Below are positions 16,732 through 55,316 of a DNA stretch of 64,000 nucleotides, in pieces. The notes below the pieces were generated by a model. The model was given only the letters and a program-made list of their open reading frames with translations. It was not told the DNA's origin and ran no database searches. Every line of letters starts with the position of its first letter. Positions within the stretch are counted from its first letter, which is position 1. A program made the translations under genes and the position numbers. The stretch lies in the NCBI GenBank assembly GCA_938074525.1, contig CALJEX010000040.1, positions 18-64,017 of the forward strand, in the 5' to 3' direction. Origin of the DNA: an uncultured Gammaproteobacteria bacterium. Its GTDB lineage: Bacteria; Pseudomonadota; Gammaproteobacteria; UBA4575.

Positions 16732-18451
16732 TTAGTGTCTCTTTTTTTTCACAATGAAGACATTTTTTTGCAGTTCATTGCCGACATTGGTATTGCGCTT
16801 AATTATTTTAGCTAAAGTTGTTTTCTTGATTTTTCTTAGCTCCTTACCCCAAAAATTGTTTTCATACCAGAATCGATCGCCATCACGTAGTCTTTCAAAC
16901 TGATCTTTAAGAGTAGTGTAAAAAACTTCGCCAACCAAGGCATCGTCTATATGATCTTCTGCTAAACCACCTACCCATAAATCGACATGATCAACACTGT
17001 CGTAAGCATTCTCTAGTCTTGCTTGAACTTCTGGGTTAGACGATATTTCTGAGAATGATACTACTGGCTCTAAGCCTAACTTTTTGCGGGTGTCATTATA
17101 GCTGAGTAGGCCGTGATCACGACCTCTTTGGATATTTAATGAAGCTAAATCAAAGCCACCTTTGCCGGGTTGTCCAAATAAGAAATTCCTAACATCGTCT
17201 ATCACGAATATGTCCAAGTTTTGGCAGGTTTGTGATGCTAAACCTCTTAGTATTGGTCCGATATTGCCTTGTTCTGTTAACAGGTGTGGTGCAAAAAATG
17301 CTTCACGCAGTGAGATGTGTCCATGGCGTGTTTCTTTGCCATTCCGATTTAATCTCATAATTCTTAGTGATAATAAACTATGACCTAAGCGATATGCGGC
17401 AGTAGAGAATTCATTTGCTATGCGGGCATCAACGTCAGGCTTGTAACCCTCGTACTTAGATAAGGCATGTTTGCCTAAAAGGACCGGGATGAATTCATTG
17501 TAAGTAATGACTTGCATTTGCGCTGCAACAATACGTCTGGCGCGTTGATAAATTTCATCACCTGACAGGTGATGATTTTTTTGTTTAATCTTTTTGGCAA
17601 GGCGATTGTGTTCGCGAACAAACAAGGTATGCATAGTAGTTAAGCCTATTTGTTCATTTGCACGCACATCACCCGCTAAAAATAATTTGTCACTACTGCC
17701 GCCGGCATTGCTTAAGCCAGCAGTATTAAAAGGTAGTAACCCTTTTTTACTCGTTTTAAGTTTGCCTCAGCCATTCATTTTACGCAGTTCTATAGCACGA
17801 TCTTCATCGGATCCATATACGTTTGAAGCATCTATCCAGCCTGTGATTTCATTTAACTGTTGTCTGGGGTTGGAGCCGGGTTCATAAATTGACCTATTAA
17901 AACTCATGACGACACTTCCTGAGCTGTCTGGGTCGAACTGCGGGTCCCCGCTAGGAATTAAAATTGGTGCTAATTCTTCGGGACTAACGCCATCTGTAAT
18001 ATCTATATCGTGATCTAGGAATTGACCCCATTGCCATAGAAAATCGCTAGCGTGTTTTTTTGTTTGTGTTGAGTTTGTTTGTGACATGACAGCATTGCTA
18101 ATGTCTCTTGGGTTAGGTCTATCAATGCCTGCCATCGCGCTAGATTGATCGCTGTACCCCGCTTCTGTTGTACGAATCAATTCTATATCGGCAGCATTCA
18201 TTTCATGGTCACTCAGATTGTTATTGCTACCATCAATGGTTCTATAAAATATTTCTGAATGATTTTTTTTTATATTTATTATGATTTCTTTCAATTCTTC
18301 TAACAGGAGATGAATTAGGGTTAGACATGGTGTGATCAGCTTGATTTAGAAGGTCTTCGGTAGGGGAGATTCCTTCTGAACTGTCTGATAATGCGTGCGT
18401 TGCATATATTGATATGCATAGCGCGGCTACGCTTATAGAAATATATTTCAT
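16732..18451 (-). pseudogene. Bacterial animal-type heme peroxidase (peroxidase-cyclooxygenase superfamily), disrupted by a +1 frameshift in an A9 run and an in-frame TGA
   Basis: Three track ORFs (18242..18451, 17767..18294, 16732..17667) concatenate into one protein of about 570 aa. It has a signal peptide MKYISISVAALCISIYATHALS, then RTIDGSNNNL, then the distal heme pocket FLWQWGQFLDHDIDIT. Further on are VDASNVYGS, LLPFNTAGLSNAGGSSDKLFLAGDVRANEQIGLTTMHTLFVREHNRLA, the proximal His in YRLGHSLL, and DLWVGGLAEDH. All are hallmark animal heme peroxidase motifs. Frame change at T9 18263..18271 (A9 on the coding strand). In-frame TGA at 17767..17769. Confidence 0.78.
18263..18271 (-). repeat. 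A9 homopolymer (T9 on the plus strand) at the peroxidase frameshift site
   Basis: With A8 instead of A9 the reading becomes continuous: ...RRIERNHNKYKKNHSEIFYRTIDGSNNNL. Confidence 0.7.
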
Positions 18452-37372: not shown

Positions 37373-39448
37373 TTAAGCGGCGCTAGAGAAGTCGTAACCT
37401 AGATTCTCATTAGGTTCGCGGAAAAAGTCACCGCTGACGAAATCAATATTGATTGACCAGATTTGGGATAGTGCTTCTGCAGATTCAACGAATGGTGCAA
37501 TAGTCATAGTGTTTTTCTGTTTCGCTTGTTCGCAGATATGTTTGATATCTTCAATACGTTCTTTATCGCCATTCTTAAGGCTGGCCATAAGCTGGAAGCT
37601 CAGTTTTAAATAGCTAGAAGGAATCATTGATAGAATCTTTTCTGGTTCTTGGCTGATTCCAAACGCATCAATAGCGATCTGACAACCAAGTTGTTTTAAT
37701 CGTGTTGCAAATTCGCGGGCATCTTTTAAGTGACTGACAATGCTTTCTTCGCGCATGTCGAACACTAGCCTAAACGGATCGACATTATTGCTTTGGCATT
37801 GTTTTTCTAACCATGGGGCAAATTGTTGGTCGTTTAAAGCACCGGTAGTTAACTTAATGAAAAACTGGGAGTCAGGGCTTTTGTCTCCATGCTCAGCAAG
37901 TTTCTTGATTGCAGTGGTGACTACCCAGCGATCGAGCATTGCAGACACGCCGGATCTCTCAATACTTGGAAGTAGCTCAGCCACAGAAATTTTTGCACCT
38001 TCTTTGCTGACTAACTGGGTGTAGACTTGGTAACGATCTTCAGTTTTTCCGGTAATGCTAACAACCGGTTGAAATAATAGTAATAATCTATTTTCGCGAA
38101 TCGCATCTTGTAGTTCCTGCGTCCACTTTTGATCAAGCAAAGTGCCCGTTAGGCTGCGTGATTCCTTAGCAAAAATATAAAGCTCTTGTATTTCATTTTC
38201 CCAAGCGTAGTCACATGCTGATTTTGCTGCTGATAGTGCATCTGCAACTTCTTTTAAACTTGGGTCTAGTGGTGTGGCGCCGATGTATAGTTCCGGGGAA
38301 ACCTTTAGATTGTTGATTGTGACAGGGTTGTTGTCAATCGCAGCTCTAAGGCGTGCACCCAATTTAACTAGTTTGTCTTCATCGTTTTTAGGGGTCAGTA
38401 TGCCAAACGATTCATCATTAATTTTTCCAAGTGCTTCCTCGTCGCCACATACTTGTTTAAGTGCGTCTGCAATATGTGAGCCTAGCTTGTCAATTGCACT
38501 GATACCGAATTGATCTTTGATGGTGTCGATATTAGCAATGTCTATCTGAATATAAGTCGATGGAGTTTTTCCACCTTGTGTAGATTCAATCGCTTCTTGA
38601 ATTTTGTCTGTTAGTGACTTCCTGTGGAAGAAGCCAGTTTCATGATCACGTTCGCTGATGTAACTAAGTTGTTCTTGAAGTTCTTTTGACTCGCTTGTTT
38701 GCATATGTAATACAAATTGTACGCAAGTCTCGCCTTCGACTAGTACTGGATTGTATTCAATATCTGTATGGAAATATTCTTCACCAGACTTGAAGTTTAA
38801 ACTAGCAGTTCCAGATGTGCGATTCTTGCTAACATCTTTTAGAATTGATTTTAACGAGGCTTGGTCATCAGGTGAAACTAGTTCGAGAATTGATAGTATG
38901 CTTGCGTCTTCTGCGCCATTGATATCAAATAATTCTAAATACGATGTGTTGGCGTATGTGTGTAAACCTTCATGTATATAACAGATTGCATCACGCGAGG
39001 TATCAAGTATTTTATTGTAACGCTGGTCTAGATCTTTATAGTTGTCGGCTTGGACTTTTAAGTCTTGGATATAGAATTCGGTTTGTGCGAAACGTGAAGT
39101 GGCTTGTTTTAGCTGTTCAGTATCATCGTAAGGCAAAACTATATTGGCGCCGTCGGTGAATAGCTGTGCTTGCTGGCTGGAAACATCTTCACAGAGAGCA
39201 ACAATAGGTGTTTCGTGATTATCAAATTTGAAGCAAGAACGAGCATCTTGAATGCCTAATTCGTCAATATTGTTAGCTTGAATAATAATGTGTGGATTGA
39301 CTTCTAGATTTTTGATCTCTTCAAATTGTTCTTTTGATGAAACAATTGTCTCCCGCACTGCAAAGCCTGACGACTTGATTGTTCTCACAATATTGTCGGC
39401 ATTATTTGCATTTTGGTCTATCACCAAAATTTTTAATATCTGATCCAT
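37373..39448 (-). CDS. FimX-like c-di-GMP receptor: degenerate REC - PAS - degenerate GGDEF (NDESF) - degenerate EAL
   Basis: 691 aa. REC-like N-terminus lacks the phospho-acceptor Asp (HIIIQANNIDE). PAS segment (AICYIHEGLHTYANTSYLELFD). GGDEF fold with RDHETGFFHRKSLT ... IDIANIDTIKDQFG ... NDESFGIL, so GG(D/E)EF is replaced. EAL fold with LLLLFQPVV, but the EAL triad is replaced (YTQL), DDFG becomes IDAFG, and the KxD Asp is lost. Confidence 0.7.
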   Translation of the reverse strand: MDQILKILVIDQNANNADNIVRTIKSSGFAVRETIVSSKEQFEEIKNLEVNPHIIIQANNIDELGIQDARSCFKFDNHETPIVALCEDVSSQQAQLFTDGANIVLPYDDTEQLKQATSRFAQTEFYIQDLKVQADNYKDLDQRYNKILDTSRDAICYIHEGLHTYANTSYLELFDINGAEDASILSILELVSPDDQASLKSILKDVSKNRTSGTASLNFKSGEEYFHTDIEYNPVLVEGETCVQFVLHMQTSESKELQEQLSYISERDHETGFFHRKSLTDKIQEAIESTQGGKTPSTYIQIDIANIDTIKDQFGISAIDKLGSHIADALKQVCGDEEALGKINDESFGILTPKNDEDKLVKLGARLRAAIDNNPVTINNLKVSPELYIGATPLDPSLKEVADALSAAKSACDYAWENEIQELYIFAKESRSLTGTLLDQKWTQELQDAIRENRLLLLFQPVVSITGKTEDRYQVYTQLVSKEGAKISVAELLPSIERSGVSAMLDRWVVTTAIKKLAEHGDKSPDSQFFIKLTTGALNDQQFAPWLEKQCQSNNVDPFRLVFDMREESIVSHLKDAREFATRLKQLGCQIAIDAFGISQEPEKILSMIPSSYLKLSFQLMASLKNGDKERIEDIKHICEQAKQKNTMTIAPFVESAEALSQIWSINIDFVSGDFFREPNENLGYDFSSAA

Positions 39449-39484: not shown

Positions 39485-41278
39485 TTATTCTTTGCTGAAT
39501 ATTTTTATCACTTCAATATGTGAGAAACAGCTAGTCTTTTCCAATGTTCTTCCCAGCATCACAGTGCGTTGACTGTTAGAGCCTTTAATGTTTATTTCAC
39601 GCGAATCTAAATTTGAATTAGAAGGTAGTAATAAACTATAGCTTTTACTATTCTCAAAAATTCTTTTAAGTAATAGTCCTTGATATTCTAAGTGAGTATT
39701 ATTTTTGTTATATGCGGTCACGCATGCGCACTCAGCGCCAAAAAGTTCTACTCCCACTTTGTGTTCTTTGTTAGGGAGGCCTTGCATCCATCTAATAATG
39801 CCAACACGCCACTGCAGAGTCTCACGACTTTTATTCTCATCGCGAATAGCAATAATCTCACCAACCCGAGTAGTGCAAATACCGTCTGCTTTGTAGTGTA
39901 GACAGAAGCCTCCAGCATTGAAGTTTTCTACTTGCCATTTGTCTAATGAAGCTACGATGCTAGAATATTTTGCTTGGTCTTGTTGATTGACGTCGGCAGC
40001 ATCTTGCATTCCTTTTTGAACAGCAAATGGATTCCATACATCGCTTAATGTTTCATTAGCTGAAGCTTGGCTTAATGTTTTAGGCGAGCTGGCATTGATG
40101 GTTTCTTCCACTGGTAATAAGGAAAGGCTATTGACCACAAACGAACTCTGATCAGCATAATCGACAGTGTCCTCTGGTTTTGGATTCATTGTTTCTACTA
40201 TGCGCGATAGGCCAATAATCGCACGCACGACTTGGTCGCTTTTGATTCTTTTTTTATGGCGCTGACTTGGGTTGCCAATCATAGTGATTAAACGGCCCGC
40301 TAGTTCAGGATCTAATTCTTCGTTTGACTGTAAATAATAAGAAGTGCTTTGAGCAAACTTCTTGGTTGATTCTGCAAGTTTGCTAACTAATGCCGCGTAA
40401 CCGATAAAGCGATTCTCAGTGGAGATAGGCATTTCTCTGGGAATATAATATGTTGGGTGCTTGCCGGTGGCGAGATTGGCAATATAGATATACTCACCGC
40501 TTAAACTGTCTGTATTAGGTGTGATATCAATTAACTCATGATGCATTTCAAGGAACTTGTTTACTTTGTCGGCCTCACCTTGGCGTAATTGGTTAAATGA
40601 TATTAATGTGAGTGCGCAAAGGTGCTTGAATATATTGATAATCGTGGTTTTTTCTTTTGTTCCGTCTGTGCTGATGAATGCGGTGTGCAATCCATAGTGT
40701 TCTGCTACTCTGTATAGCTGGCAAATGTCATGCCATAGACTTTTAGGTATTTCTTGGTACATTAATAAACTTGCAACATACTGATGTTGCAGATGTGAAA
40801 TAGCATTGTATATGCAATGGAGTAATTTCTTTTGGTCTAGCCTTGCATCGCCTTGTACTACTTCCGATATGATAATCTTGAATGCGATAGCAAGCTCGGA
40901 ATTCATGTTTTGTTGCAGCTGAAATATCTCGGTAGCACTTGGTGACAGCGGGAATGTTTGGCAAGCTAAGTATCTGCGATGATGGTCAAGAAATGTTTTT
41001 GATAATGGTAGTAACAACTCTATTGAAGCAAATCTTTGTTTAACAGGATATGACTGCCGATTACTAGCAGCGATTAACTGGAAGGTTTGTTTGCTCGCGG
41101 TGTCAAGATTGATCATGGGTAACTCTTTGATCCACTTCTTAACTTGGCGCGGGGTAAATGCAATATCCGGCTGTGCCAACGGATCTTGTGTAGGCATATA
41201 GATTTGCATGTCCAATAACATCGAAATAGTTCCCTGCGTGTTTAAATTTTCAACTTTAGATTCTAAAACTTGTACCAA
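39485..41278 (-). CDS. Hypothetical 597-aa soluble protein, no recognisable family; encoded 36 nt upstream of the FimX-like gene
   Basis: Long uninterrupted ORF with typical codon usage and its own AT-rich upstream region (41279..41436). No TM helices, P-loop or metal motifs seen. The C-terminal ~120 aa is beta-rich, with NFNAGG only partly resembling the PilZ (D/N)xSxxG element; no RxxxR. Confidence 0.6.
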   Translation of the reverse strand: MVQVLESKVENLNTQGTISMLLDMQIYMPTQDPLAQPDIAFTPRQVKKWIKELPMINLDTASKQTFQLIAASNRQSYPVKQRFASIELLLPLSKTFLDHHRRYLACQTFPLSPSATEIFQLQQNMNSELAIAFKIIISEVVQGDARLDQKKLLHCIYNAISHLQHQYVASLLMYQEIPKSLWHDICQLYRVAEHYGLHTAFISTDGTKEKTTIINIFKHLCALTLISFNQLRQGEADKVNKFLEMHHELIDITPNTDSLSGEYIYIANLATGKHPTYYIPREMPISTENRFIGYAALVSKLAESTKKFAQSTSYYLQSNEELDPELAGRLITMIGNPSQRHKKRIKSDQVVRAIIGLSRIVETMNPKPEDTVDYADQSSFVVNSLSLLPVEETINASSPKTLSQASANETLSDVWNPFAVQKGMQDAADVNQQDQAKYSSIVASLDKWQVENFNAGGFCLHYKADGICTTRVGEIIAIRDENKSRETLQWRVGIIRWMQGLPNKEHKVGVELFGAECACVTAYNKNNTHLEYQGLLLKRIFENSKSYSLLLPSNSNLDSREINIKGSNSQRTVMLGRTLEKTSCFSHIEVIKIFSKE

Positions 41279-51984: not shown

Positions 51985-51998
51985 ATTCACTAGTGAAT
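51985..51998. promoter_or_regulatory. Perfect 14-bp palindrome ATTCACTAGTGAAT about 30 nt upstream of the fimV start
   Basis: Self-complementary sequence seen directly in the asd-fimV intergenic region. A GGGGGA Shine-Dalgarno follows at 52015..52020. Confidence 0.3.
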
Positions 51999-52028
51999 AT
52001 ACAAAAAGTAATCATGGGGGATACAAGA

Positions 52029-55000
52029 ATGCATAAGAAGATTGTGGCACTTACCTTATTGGCCACTCTGCTTGTTGGAAGCCCCGGGCTCGTTTTCGCA
52101 TTTGGATTGGGTGAGATCGAAATTAACTCAGCACTCAATCAACCAATGGATGCAGAGATTGATTTGGTAGGTTTCAGCGCAGCCACTATCGATGAAGTTC
52201 AAGTTGAACTGGCAAGCCAACAGATGTTTGAACGAGTTGGTGTACCACGTCCATATATTCTGACTCGCTTGAAGTTCACGCCAATGATCTCCAATGGCAA
52301 ACCAGTTATTAAAGTAACTTCAACTGATGCTGTACGTGAACCCTTCCTTACGTTCCTAGTCGATGTGCGTTGGGCGAAAGGTAAGTTACTTAGAGAATAC
52401 GCAGTAATGCTAGACCCACCAGTATTTGGTGAGAAAGCGAAAGCAACAATCCAAGCGCCAAAGGTAGCAACGCAAGCAGCAAAGCCTGCACCTGTTGCAA
52501 AAAAGCCAGTATCTAAACCACGCACGGTGGTTAATGCTCCAGCACCGAAAGTGCCTGCTCCAAGTGTGCGTCCCAATCAAGCAGCTGTACCCAGTACAGC
52601 ATCTAAACCAGTCCCGCTAAAAAAAACAGATTCCAGGCCAGTTAGACGTGGAGATACTCTTTGGAGTATCGCTGAGCCATATGCGCGTGAGAATGGTGTA
52701 AGCGTTAATCAAATGATGTTGGCTATTCAAGAAGCCAATCCACAAAGTTTCGCGAAAAATAATATTAATAATCTTAAGTCTGGTGTCGTTCTGCGTATTC
52801 CCGCAGATCAAGCGTCAAAATATTCTGCACGTGAAGCACTTGCAGAAGTTCAACGTCAATGGCAAGTATGGAAGCAAGGAACATCAGCTGATTCTGGTGC
52901 CGTGAATGTTGATGCTGGCGATGTGGTTGACAGTGAAGTGATGGAAACTCCTCAACCTGAGCAAGGACAGTCAAAAAGTACCGATTCTTCTTTGTCTATT
53001 TTAGGTGAAGGTGATGCTGCTGATGGTAAAACTGGTGACGATGCTAATGCCACTCTAAAAGAGTTGCGCAGGCAAGTGAGCTTGCTTAAGGAAAACACAG
53101 AATCGAAAGGCCAAGAAAATATTGAGCTTAAAGGCCGTATAGAAACACTCGAATCAATGATTAAAAAGCAGGAAGATATTATTAGCCTGCAGAATGAACA
53201 ATTAGCCCAATTGCAAAATACCCTGGCAACAGATAATTCTGATTCATTGGCACAGCCTGGGGCAGAAGAAAAAGTAATGGATGCTGCTGAACAAGCAGTT
53301 GCAACAGCAGAGAATCAAGTTGAAGAGCTAGCAGCAGAAGTTGATGCTAAATCTGAGCAAGGCATTAAAGCGGCATTGGTTGAGCCGTTGCCTGACTTCT
53401 CTGGTCCAATTCCTGAAGAATTCCTAGCTGCTGAGCAAGAAGCACAAGAAAGTTTGGTTGCACAAGCAGAAGTTGCGCCAAAGGAAATAGCGCCTGTAGA
53501 AACTGTGGCAGAAGTTTCATTTATCGAAAAAATTAAAACAATAATCCAAGATCAAGGTAAGACATTACTATATGCAGGTGGTGCATTGATTGTGCTTCTA
53601 TTGGGTTGGTTAGGCATCAAGCGGCGTAATGCAAATGTAGAAGATAGTAGTCTTGAAGCAAATGGATTGCCGGCTTTTGAAGATGAGCCGTCAATAGATG
53701 AAATGCTTGATGACACTGTTGTTGCTACGACTGATGATAATGTTGATGAAGTGTTAGATGATCTTGAAACTGTCGATGCACAAGGTGAGCCAGAGGAAAG
53801 TGTATTTGTTGGTGAGGATCCGAATGCGCCTGTAGCTAGTGATGATGTATTGGCTGAGGCCGACGTCTACATTTCTTACGGCTTATATCAACAAGCAGAA
53901 GAGCTTCTAAAAGAAGGTCTGGTCAAAGAGCCTGATAATGCAAATTACCAAGTAAAATTAGCCGAAATTTATTACGCTGATAAGAAGTCTGATGAATTTG
54001 TGCAACATGTAGAAGCGATGGAATCCGGTATGGATAAGCAATCGCCTGAGTGGGCTAAAATCGCTTCGTTAGGCGCAGCACTAGTCCCAGCACATGCTTT
54101 ATTTGCAGGGGCAGATGGATCATCGGCTGTCGCCGACGAAACACCTGCGTTTGCTGCAGATTCAACAGAAGACGTTGCAGAAACCGAAACCGATGACATA
54201 AGTGATTTCAGTATGGCTTCCGAAGATATGGAAGACTTTGATAGCGATGATCTTGACGACAACTCGCTTGATTTCACTTTCGATGATGATGGTGAGTTAA
54301 GTGATGGTGTATCTCAAGCTCTTGAAGATTCGTCAGCTGACGAAACACAGGCATTTGCAGCAGATCCAGAAGAAGACATACTAGAAGAGTCTTCTACCGC
54401 AATACTCGAAGCAGGATTGGATTTTGAAGATAATGATGCATCTACTGCCAGTTCTGGTGCTGATGATGAAACGTTAGCATTTGATAGTAATGATGTGGGT
54501 TCATCAAACGAGACAAGTGATGACAATGATGTGTTCTTGGACTTTGATGGGGATGCGTTAGAGAATGAATTGAATTCTTCAGTGGGTCATGATGGTGAGA
54601 CAGAAATGCTAGATGCGTCGTTGCTAACAGGATCAGATGCGGATTTAGATCTTGATGATGCGATTGATCTTGGTGATGATTTGAATACTGAATCTACTAA
54701 TGTGGGTATTAAAATCGATAACGATCTTGATGATATGTTGGATGGTGAGAATTCAGAGACAGCAATGTTTGATAGTTCTTTGTTTGATGTGAATAGCCCT
54801 GAAGCTAAGGCTTTCGCAGGCGGAGACGAAAGTGAGCGTGTTGATGAAGATACGGTAAGTCTAGAACAAGTACAGGAGAATCTAACAGCAGAACTTGAAA
54901 CATTAAGCTTCGATCCTTATGATATTGACCCTGAGAACATGGAAGAAGATTCACTGCCGACATTGCAGACTTCTGAGCTCGGTAAGCCGGATCTAGATAT

Positions 55001-55316
55001 TGATGATCTAAATGAGAGTTTAACTGCTAGCGAAACCGGTACGTTTGAAAAAGATATGCTTACAGATGATGTTACTGAGCAATTTGATGTCGGTAATATT
55101 GATTCAACCATGACTGATCTCGGTGAATTCGGAGATGATTATGAGTTAGAGAATCCATCTGTGATTGAAGAGGTTGGAACAAAGTTAGACTTAGCTAAAG
55201 CTTTCGTTGATATGGGTGATGAGGATGCTGCCAAAGAGACTCTCACTGAAGTGATGGAGCAGGGCGACTCAACTCAAATCCAACAAGCAAAGGATTTGCT
55301 AGATAAGTTAAATTAA
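52029..55316 (+). CDS. fimV: Peptidoglycan-binding (LysM) pilus/polar-organising protein FimV/HubP family
   Basis: Start moved to ATG 52029 (signal peptide MHKKIVALTLLATLLVGSPGLVFA; SD GGGGGA upstream); the track ORF starts at GTG 51993. FimV N-terminal motif FGLGEIEINSALNQP. LysM (RRGDTLWSIAE...LKSGVVLRIP). Coiled coil. One TM (LLYAGGALIVLLLGWLGI). Very acidic repetitive cytoplasmic region. Conserved FimV C-terminal motif LDLAKAFVDMGDEDAAKETLTEVMEQGD. Confidence 0.82.
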   Translation: MHKKIVALTLLATLLVGSPGLVFAFGLGEIEINSALNQPMDAEIDLVGFSAATIDEVQVELASQQMFERVGVPRPYILTRLKFTPMISNGKPVIKVTSTDAVREPFLTFLVDVRWAKGKLLREYAVMLDPPVFGEKAKATIQAPKVATQAAKPAPVAKKPVSKPRTVVNAPAPKVPAPSVRPNQAAVPSTASKPVPLKKTDSRPVRRGDTLWSIAEPYARENGVSVNQMMLAIQEANPQSFAKNNINNLKSGVVLRIPADQASKYSAREALAEVQRQWQVWKQGTSADSGAVNVDAGDVVDSEVMETPQPEQGQSKSTDSSLSILGEGDAADGKTGDDANATLKELRRQVSLLKENTESKGQENIELKGRIETLESMIKKQEDIISLQNEQLAQLQNTLATDNSDSLAQPGAEEKVMDAAEQAVATAENQVEELAAEVDAKSEQGIKAALVEPLPDFSGPIPEEFLAAEQEAQESLVAQAEVAPKEIAPVETVAEVSFIEKIKTIIQDQGKTLLYAGGALIVLLLGWLGIKRRNANVEDSSLEANGLPAFEDEPSIDEMLDDTVVATTDDNVDEVLDDLETVDAQGEPEESVFVGEDPNAPVASDDVLAEADVYISYGLYQQAEELLKEGLVKEPDNANYQVKLAEIYYADKKSDEFVQHVEAMESGMDKQSPEWAKIASLGAALVPAHALFAGADGSSAVADETPAFAADSTEDVAETETDDISDFSMASEDMEDFDSDDLDDNSLDFTFDDDGELSDGVSQALEDSSADETQAFAADPEEDILEESSTAILEAGLDFEDNDASTASSGADDETLAFDSNDVGSSNETSDDNDVFLDFDGDALENELNSSVGHDGETEMLDASLLTGSDADLDLDDAIDLGDDLNTESTNVGIKIDNDLDDMLDGENSETAMFDSSLFDVNSPEAKAFAGGDESERVDEDTVSLEQVQENLTAELETLSFDPYDIDPENMEEDSLPTLQTSELGKPDLDIDDLNESLTASETGTFEKDMLTDDVTEQFDVGNIDSTMTDLGEFGDDYELENPSVIEEVGTKLDLAKAFVDMGDEDAAKETLTEVMEQGDSTQIQQAKDLLDKLN

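Follow-up and report, generated by a model that had tools for sequence, protein, structure and literature searches.

Identification of a fimX gene in the window

FimX is a textbook example of a degenerate enzyme that now serves type IV pili as a second-messenger receptor. In the 64,000-nucleotide (64-kb) stretch of DNA analyzed here, contig CALJEX010000040.1 of an uncultured Gammaproteobacteria bacterium and referred to as the window herein, we found a fimX orthologue encoded on the minus strand by an ATG-to-stop open reading frame (ORF) of 691 codons. The gene, its domains, and the evidence for each are as follows.

37373..39448, minus strand: fimX orthologue, 691 amino acids (aa), with REC-like, PAS, degenerate GGDEF and degenerate EAL domains (ORF, Pfam, PDB match, alignment to Pseudomonas aeruginosa FimX, ratio of nonsynonymous to synonymous substitution rates (dN/dS))
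39089..39448, minus strand: receiver-like (pseudo-REC) domain, residues 1-120 (AlphaFold2 topology and family N-terminal profile)
38708..39022, minus strand: PAS domain, residues 143-247 (Pfam PF00989, E 8.3e-08, 32.7 bits against a cut-off of 22.6)
38210..38650, minus strand: degenerate GGDEF domain, residues 267-413, with the signature NDESF (Pfam PF00990, E 6e-14; gap-free against the cyclases 3ign and 5llw)
37412..38119, minus strand: degenerate EAL domain, residues 444-679 (Pfam PF00563, E 3e-44; Foldseek; lowest dN)
38015..38029, minus strand: QVYTQ, residues 474-478, at the site of the EXLXR motif for cyclic di-GMP (c-di-GMP) and metal (alignments and family table)
37382..37396, minus strand: YDFSS tail at the C terminus, residues 685-689, beyond the canonical EAL core (alignment of 78 family members)

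The order REC-like, PAS, GGDEF, and EAL in a soluble protein of ∼690 aa is that of the FimX family. An initial annotation of this DNA had described a 691-aa REC-PAS-GGDEF-EAL protein matching P. aeruginosa FimX in length. The ORF, which lies on the minus strand, the Pfam matches, the AlphaFold2 model, and the profile search all agree with this description, and P. aeruginosa FimX (PA4959; P0095; PaFimX herein) is indeed 691 aa long as well. The AlphaFold2 model was built on a 44-sequence family alignment and has a mean predicted local distance difference test (pLDDT) score of 82.9.

Orthology to FimX

To place the protein among GGDEF-EAL proteins, we compared it with solved structures at the sequence level. 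The top match was the GGDEF-EAL region of P. aeruginosa FimX (4j40, E 1.3e-56), followed by the isolated FimX EAL domains 3hv8/3hv9 (E 3e-42), and in this PDB sequence search the FimX structures outranked the P. aeruginosa GGDEF-EAL proteins RbdA and MorA as well as LapD and DosP. By BLASTP, the window protein and PaFimX are collinear over residues 5-690 (691 vs 691 aa, 27% identity, E 4e-89). The two proteins share the REC-like/PAS/GGDEF/EAL order, the absence of an acceptor Asp, a degenerate GGDEF, and a noncatalytic EAL domain; they differ in host, which is a pseudomonad for PaFimX and an uncultured marine lineage here. The FimX of Xanthomonas (XAC2398/Xcc FimX; PDB 4f3h, 4foj, 7lkq) has the same architecture, and its similarity to the window EAL domain (E 1e-27 to 1e-28) is below that of PaFimX (E 1e-42).

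Across the 78 aligned family members, PaFimX included, a Y-D-F-(S/T) tail at the C terminus is effectively invariant; in the window protein it reads YDFSS. This signature was derived from the 78 members in the present analysis and is not a published criterion. As an aside, the tail makes a handy family marker, and it could be a partner-binding or dimerization element.

LapD-like and CsrD-like readings of the protein were rejected, as it has no transmembrane or HAMP region and scores far lower in those comparisons. LapD of Pseudomonas fluorescens is likewise a degenerate GGDEF-EAL receptor, in which the EAL Glu is replaced (KVL) and c-di-GMP is bound all the same (PMC3032553). However, LapD is a membrane-spanning protein with a HAMP domain and has a periplasmic protease under its control, it retains the Arg of its EAL motif (R450), it has no REC or PAS domain, and its similarity to window FimX is limited to E 1e-15.

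The strongest argument for orthology is the gene context. Directly upstream of fimX we found a homologue of fimW, whose product is a PilZ-type c-di-GMP effector encoded together with FimX (PMC11656802; PMC12564702).

39485..41221, minus strand: fimW (PA4958) homologue, 36 nt upstream of fimX on the same strand (BLASTP)

The product of this gene has a full-length match to P. aeruginosa FimW/PA4958 (E 3e-29) and is 68% identical by BLASTP to that of a gene with Pfam FimW_N/FimW_C in the complete chromosome of a relative (locus L001). The 597-aa upstream ORF gave no match in our local copies of Pfam and NCBIfam, which apparently predate the FimW_N/FimW_C models. As called mechanically, this ORF extends to a TTG at 41278; all homologues begin 19 codons later, at Met20 (MLLDMQIYMP...), and the true start of fimW is probably the ATG at 41221. 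Among the 74 related loci that have enough upstream DNA, 58 carry a fimW homologue directly upstream of fimX. A promoter and terminator scan yielded fewer sites than in shuffled sequence and none between fimW and fimX; judging from the 36-nt gap alone, the two genes are probably co-transcribed.

The wider neighborhood agrees. The order in the window is psd - epmA - efp - epmB - fimW - fimX - htpX - parC - parE - addA, and that in P. aeruginosa is psd - fimW - fimX - ... - parC - ... - parE, with the same relative orientations. PaFimX and window FimX have in common a directly upstream fimW, flanking psd, parC, and parE, the YDFSS tail, and the conserved pocket residues described below (Q461/D507/K616/F652/E654). 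The same arrangement occurs in the relatives L001 and L002, at 70% and 39% identity. This extends the fimW-fimX module, with its psd, parC, and parE neighbors conserved, to uncultured marine Gammaproteobacteria.

Taken together, the similarity, the synteny, and the family signature indicate that the window protein is a FimX orthologue. The initial annotation had called it a FimX-like receptor rather than an enzyme, a view that the similarity, collinearity, adjacency of fimW, and psd/parC/parE synteny allow us to raise to orthology. Window FimX is an otherwise ordinary member of the known FimX family, the exception being an Arg lost from its ligand pocket.

Loss of signature residues in the REC and GGDEF domains

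Searched by itself, the window FimX sequence gave no match to PF00072 (REC) in Pfam. In the AlphaFold2 model, residues 4-120 adopt the beta1-alpha1...beta5-alpha5 topology of a receiver, with pLDDT of 81-92. Whole-model Foldseek listed multi-domain and EAL matches only, and the REC fold was tested by a family-profile search instead. A profile of 31 family N-termini matched the genuine receivers MtrA, AdeR, PhoB, and CheY (E 3e-9 to 1e-5). At the acceptor column of the profile alignment, ...PDLILT-D of the receivers lies opposite ...PHIIIQ-A, so that A59 occupies the Asp position, and Asp is found at this column in 0 of the 31 sequences. This agrees with the earlier remark that the phospho-acceptor Asp is missing. 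Of the paired acidic residues, D11 is kept and the second is Q12, and the position of the conserved receiver Lys holds a non-Lys residue. A phosphorylatable response regulator has the acceptor Asp together with a conserved Thr/Ser and Lys, a set that is incomplete here.

In the GGDEF domain, GKINDESF lies without gaps opposite GR(Y/W)GGEEF of the active cyclases 3ign and 5llw, which confirms the replacement of GG(D/E)EF by NDESF seen in the initial annotation. Upstream of this signature, the D-x-F-K-x-x-N-D segment has other residues in place of F-K and N-D, and the GTP-site residues are altered. The combination of GG(D/E)EF signature and GTP-binding residues that marks an active diguanylate cyclase is not present. 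At the sequence level, NDESF is a degenerate GGDEF of the kind found in the FimX family, where PaFimX has GDSIF.

An incomplete catalytic set in the EAL domain

When the modeled EAL domain was superimposed on those of FimX structures, Foldseek gave target TM-scores of 0.86-0.91. To map the changes in this domain, we used gap-free alignments to PaFimX, whose numbering is used for pocket positions herein. DRYQVYTQL of window FimX lies opposite ENYEVLLRL, which replaces E475 with Gln, L477 with Tyr, and R479 with Gln, such that EVLLR of PaFimX is QVYTQ here. IDAFG lies opposite ISQFG, so the DDFG motif reads DAFG, with the first Asp kept and the second changed to Ala; relative to the SQFG of PaFimX, one canonical Asp has been regained or retained. 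LKLSFQ lies opposite IKIDGS, and the KxD motif (KID in PaFimX) is KLS, with the Lys kept and the Asp lost. Lastly, VSGDFF lies opposite IQGYYL, so that QGY becomes SGD.

An active EAL phosphodiesterase has the catalytic set EXLXR, Asn, ExxE, DDFG, KxD, E(G)VE, and QG. In window FimX, this set carries the changes Glu to Gln, Arg to Gln, Asn to Lys, second DDFG Asp to Ala, KxD Asp to Ser, and QG Gln to Ser, and is incomplete. The initial annotation had reported the replacement of the EAL motif (YQVYTQLV), the change of DDFG to IDAFG, and the loss of the KxD Asp (LKLSFQ). All three hold in gap-free alignments, with the refinements that the first Asp of DDFG and the Lys of KxD are still in place. 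No alternative gapping restores the catalytic residues. Gap-free alignments of all the motif regions were obtained with PaFimX, Xanthomonas FimX, and active cyclases.

Two statements of the initial annotation need adjustment. It had held that the combination of lost motifs is exactly that of FimX. PaFimX itself, however, keeps E475, R479, K-I-D, and Q-G, all of which window FimX lacks, and is without the first DDFG Asp, which window FimX has. It had also called the EAL domain more degenerate than that of FimX, for which "differently degenerate" is the better description: EXLXR has indeed lost its Arg, KxD its Asp, and QG its Gln, but E475Q and Y673D are shared with the c-di-GMP-binding FimX of Xanthomonas.

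A residually active phosphodiesterase or cyclase would be a different outcome. Weak phosphodiesterase activity of PaFimX has been reported by some laboratories (PMC11656802; PMC3527489), and window FimX keeps E568, D595, K616, and E654. Against this, it is without the EAL Glu held to be essential for Mg coordination and catalysis (PMC3527489), it has also lost the Asn, the second Asp of DDFG, the Asp of KxD, and the Gln of QG, and in the cyclase domain GG is changed to ND and the upstream GTP-site residues are altered. We consider residual activity very improbable and infer from the aligned motifs that window FimX would neither make nor break c-di-GMP.

FimX proteins from outside Pseudomonas (L020-L082) look different at this site. 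They mostly keep E475, R479, E565, E568, D595/D596, K616, and D/E618, their main exception to the canonical EAL set being a Lys at the metal-binding Asn. This fuller catalytic set implies that the active site of PaFimX is not typical of the FimX family; on the basis of these residues, some family members might retain partial activity.

Residues of the ligand pocket

We then compared the pocket with the contact residues described for PaFimX, which were taken from PMC3527489 and PMC12139848. In PaFimX, c-di-GMP is contacted by L477, R479, D507, H533, F652, E654, and Y673, while E475 is a metal ligand and K616, Q596, S595, and Q565 contact the linear dinucleotide pGpG (PMC3527489; PMC12139848). 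The states in window FimX are E475Q, L477Y, R479Q, D507 kept, H533K, Q565D, S595D, Q596A, K616 kept, D618S, F652 kept, E654 kept, Q671S, and Y673D. Three of the seven c-di-GMP contacts (D507, F652, and E654) are therefore unchanged, and the base-contacting residues Q461, D507, K616, F652, and E654 are all retained.

The remaining c-di-GMP contacts were judged against 61 other family members, that is, those outside the two clades (A and B) nearest to window FimX. Lys at position 533 and Phe or Tyr at position 477 are the family norm, and position 673 is variable. L477Y, H533K, and Y673D thus fall within family variation or are as in Xanthomonas FimX; R479Q falls outside. Among the same 61 members, three of the positions changed here stand out by their conservation, E475 being kept in 58, R479 in 59, and Q671 in 61; D618 is kept in nearly all, and the loss of both E475 and R479 is confined to clades A (Q/Q) and B (Q/A).

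Xanthomonas FimX is instructive here. Like window FimX, it has Gln as the first residue of EXLXR (QAFLR, in YQAFLRL), an aromatic third residue, and an Asp after the glycine of QG (VQGDF vs SGDFF here). It was crystallized with c-di-GMP bound, which means that neither E475Q nor Y673D prevents binding. Unlike window FimX, it has the Arg of EXLXR, the Asp of K-L-D, and the Gln of QG, and PilZ is the bridge through which it acts on PilB.

Distribution and selection

A protein identical to window FimX is present in a public protein collection. A scan of species-representative genomes confirmed at least 582 relatives, the figure coming from the 599 pattern matches listed. The relatives fall into three groups: clade A, with graded identities of 92-54%; clade B, at about 38%; and the general FimX family, at 27-32%, with Ectothiorhodospira, Thioalkalivibrio, Thiohalobacter, Pseudomonas, and others. 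Clades A and B consist entirely of uncultured marine metagenome-assembled genomes labeled Gammaproteobacteria or Thiotrichales, some of which are closed chromosomes of 2.4-2.8 Mb. One clade B locus, L015 (CAXMUG010000031.1), stands under the record title "uncultured Mycobacterium sp." Its identity of 38% is the same as that of the gammaproteobacterial clade B loci, and the label is thus almost certainly a binning or labeling error.

Window FimX is under strong purifying selection. Against the 90% identical L004, dN/dS is about 0.03, and the EAL domain has a dN of 0.032 compared with 0.085-0.088 for REC and GGDEF. The EAL value was the lowest of all domains in every valid comparison, making EAL the most constrained domain of the protein. 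As evidence of selection we relied on the ratio against L004 and on the ranking of dN values only, because the match to L006 has a length that is not a multiple of three, which invalidates its dN/dS, and dS is saturated for more distant pairs.

These data bear on whether the gene is simply decaying or misannotated. The loss of every catalytic signature would fit a pseudogene, but a 690-693-aa frame is intact in more than 45 relatives at 54-100% identity, dN/dS is 0.03, and the model is confident by mean pLDDT. The intact frame and the low ratio rule out a pseudogene, and we assign this explanation a negligible likelihood.

The altered motifs are themselves conserved. Clade A members down to about 54% identity all have QVYTQL, IDAFG, KLSFQ, and SGDFF, and clade B has the motif QIYTA with A479, C618, Q671, and N673. 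Invariance across clade A points to selection for a new state and not to drift, and would fit a pocket re-tuned to another nucleotide, such as linear pGpG, GTP/GDP, or another cyclic dinucleotide, bound at the QVYTQ/KLS/SGD site as a second input to the fimW-fimX module. The PaFimX EAL pocket can hold pGpG via K616, Q596, S595, and Q565 (PMC3527489). The last three of these positions differ in window FimX (A, D, and D, respectively), which also speaks for this reading. The different residues of clade B at the substituted positions count against one precise new specificity. Moreover, to our knowledge there is no EAL-domain receptor for another ligand. We therefore regard a re-tuned specificity as unlikely.

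Ligand binding and proposed role of window FimX

Because window FimX is a FimX orthologue, its role would be that of a noncatalytic adaptor in the FimX pathway. It may be co-transcribed with the PilZ-type FimW and would regulate type IV pilus assembly or polarity, with the N-terminal half mediating dimerization and localization. The EAL domain would serve as a binding module that controls contact with the pilus extension machinery, either with PilB directly or via PilZ, or with the Pil-Chp system. PaFimX mutants with EVL changed to AAA lose binding, PilB interaction, and function (PMC5595344), and PilZ bridges FimX to PilB in Xanthomonas (PMC8389850). The role of FimX is treated further in PMC5595344 and PMC11656802. 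That the protein is a FimX orthologue and a catalytically dead pilus adaptor in an uncultured marine gammaproteobacterium is, in our judgment, likely.

The retention of Q461, D507, K616, F652, and E654 leads us to think that the pocket still binds a guanine nucleotide. Judged by these residues, the ligand would most likely be c-di-GMP, held with an altered and probably weaker affinity, and we give this an even chance.

Several observations weigh against a c-di-GMP-responsive pilus adaptor. The EXLXR Arg is Gln in window FimX, and D618 and Q671 are lost too, though near-universal in other members. This Arg has been described as central to the binding site in LapD (PMC3032553) and as a support for the phosphate ring in PaFimX (PMC12139848). 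The family alignment revealed no compensating gain of Lys or Arg among the clade-specific changes. The one FimX known to lack the Arg is that of Acinetobacter baylyi, which has other changes too. Isothermal titration calorimetry showed no binding of c-di-GMP or GTP to this protein, which has been recruited to pilus positioning via ChpA independently of c-di-GMP (PMC12139848). The inter-domain arrangement of our AlphaFold2 model is unreliable (predicted TM-score 0.41). Lastly, no pilB, pilT, pilZ, or pil-chp gene lies within the 64-kb window, so that the pilus machine of this organism is inferred only from fimV (described below), fimW, and fimX.

The loss of the Arg brings forward a FimX that is blind to c-di-GMP, in which the EAL domain would be purely a protein-interaction surface as in A. 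baylyi. Input from c-di-GMP would then come via FimW or other receptors, and the protein would act on pilus positioning or Pil-Chp signaling instead of on a ligand-gated activation of PilB. The three substitutions R479Q, D618S, and Q671S favor this possibility, as does the retention of the Arg in all characterized EAL-type receptors, including those with a variant EXLXR motif such as QAFLR of Xanthomonas FimX (PMC5567048) and KVLSR of LapD (PMC3032553). The A. baylyi protein (AbFimX), which carries L477T, R479G, and other changes, sets the precedent for a FimX that has lost c-di-GMP and GTP binding yet works in pilus biology (PMC12139848). FimW, in turn, retains its RxxxR motif, which is universal among homologues and reads RHKKR here.

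Other evidence is less favorable to a ligand-blind protein. By description, AbFimX is further missing F652, E654, H533, and Y673, and its GGDEF-like fold is truncated; window FimX keeps the base-contacting F652, E654, and D507, K616, and a full GGDEF fold. Conservation in the protein is highest in the EAL domain and at these very pocket positions, but the same would be seen with a conserved protein interface. FimW of this subclade is itself altered at the PilZ serine (NFNAGG). Going by the description of AbFimX, its Arg loss and that of window FimX were probably independent.

With the Arg gone, a c-di-GMP-blind adaptor is almost as likely as one that binds c-di-GMP, and by itself we rate it slightly short of an even proposition. 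The matter of c-di-GMP binding, raised in the initial annotation, comes down to the missing EXLXR Arg in a pocket whose base contacts are intact, and retained and lost binding have roughly equal prospects. We tentatively propose, without favoring it, that the two clades, with genomes of ∼2.4-2.8 Mb, represent a second, independent conversion of FimX to an adaptor that is c-di-GMP-blind or re-tuned in its ligand, with c-di-GMP sensing left to FimW.

What goes beyond the routine here is the lineage-specific loss of the EXLXR Arg in the most constrained domain of the protein. Either the Arg is dispensable or FimX has become ligand-blind a second time, and each outcome would improve sequence-based prediction of degenerate EAL receptors. 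A blind or re-tuned FimX, if real, would be a natural experiment that separates the two receptors of the fimW-fimX module.

Other features of the window

The PilZ-type (D/N)xSxxG motif of FimW reads NFNAGG, with Ser changed to Asn, in the window, L004, and L001. Other clade A members have NFSAGG or NYSSGG, and nearly all other homologues have N-x-S-x-G-G. Considered with the FimX pocket, this means that both c-di-GMP-receptor candidates of the module have unusual binding-site residues in this subclade.

A further gene of interest lies ∼12.5 kb from fimX.

51993..55316, plus strand: fimV/hubP polar landmark gene, 1107 aa, between asd and truA and downstream of leuCDB (NCBIfam TIGR03505, 82.6 bits against a curated cut-off of 43.45; TIGR03504, 56.8 bits against a curated cut-off of 30.65)

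In Pseudomonas, fimV has the same position. The remainder of the window consists of housekeeping genes.

One further observation concerns a pair of adjacent ORFs on the same strand.

16732-18294, minus strand: ORFs of 311 aa and 175 aa matching Pfam "Animal haem peroxidase" (PF03098)

The two ORFs cover profile positions 216-530 (E 2e-112) and 1-174 (E 1e-37), respectively, and from this coverage the pair appears to be a single peroxidase gene interrupted by a frameshift or stop or by an error of assembly. Both ORFs sit in the block of lowest GC content in the window (0.379 vs about 0.42), which suggests that the peroxidase gene may be horizontally acquired.

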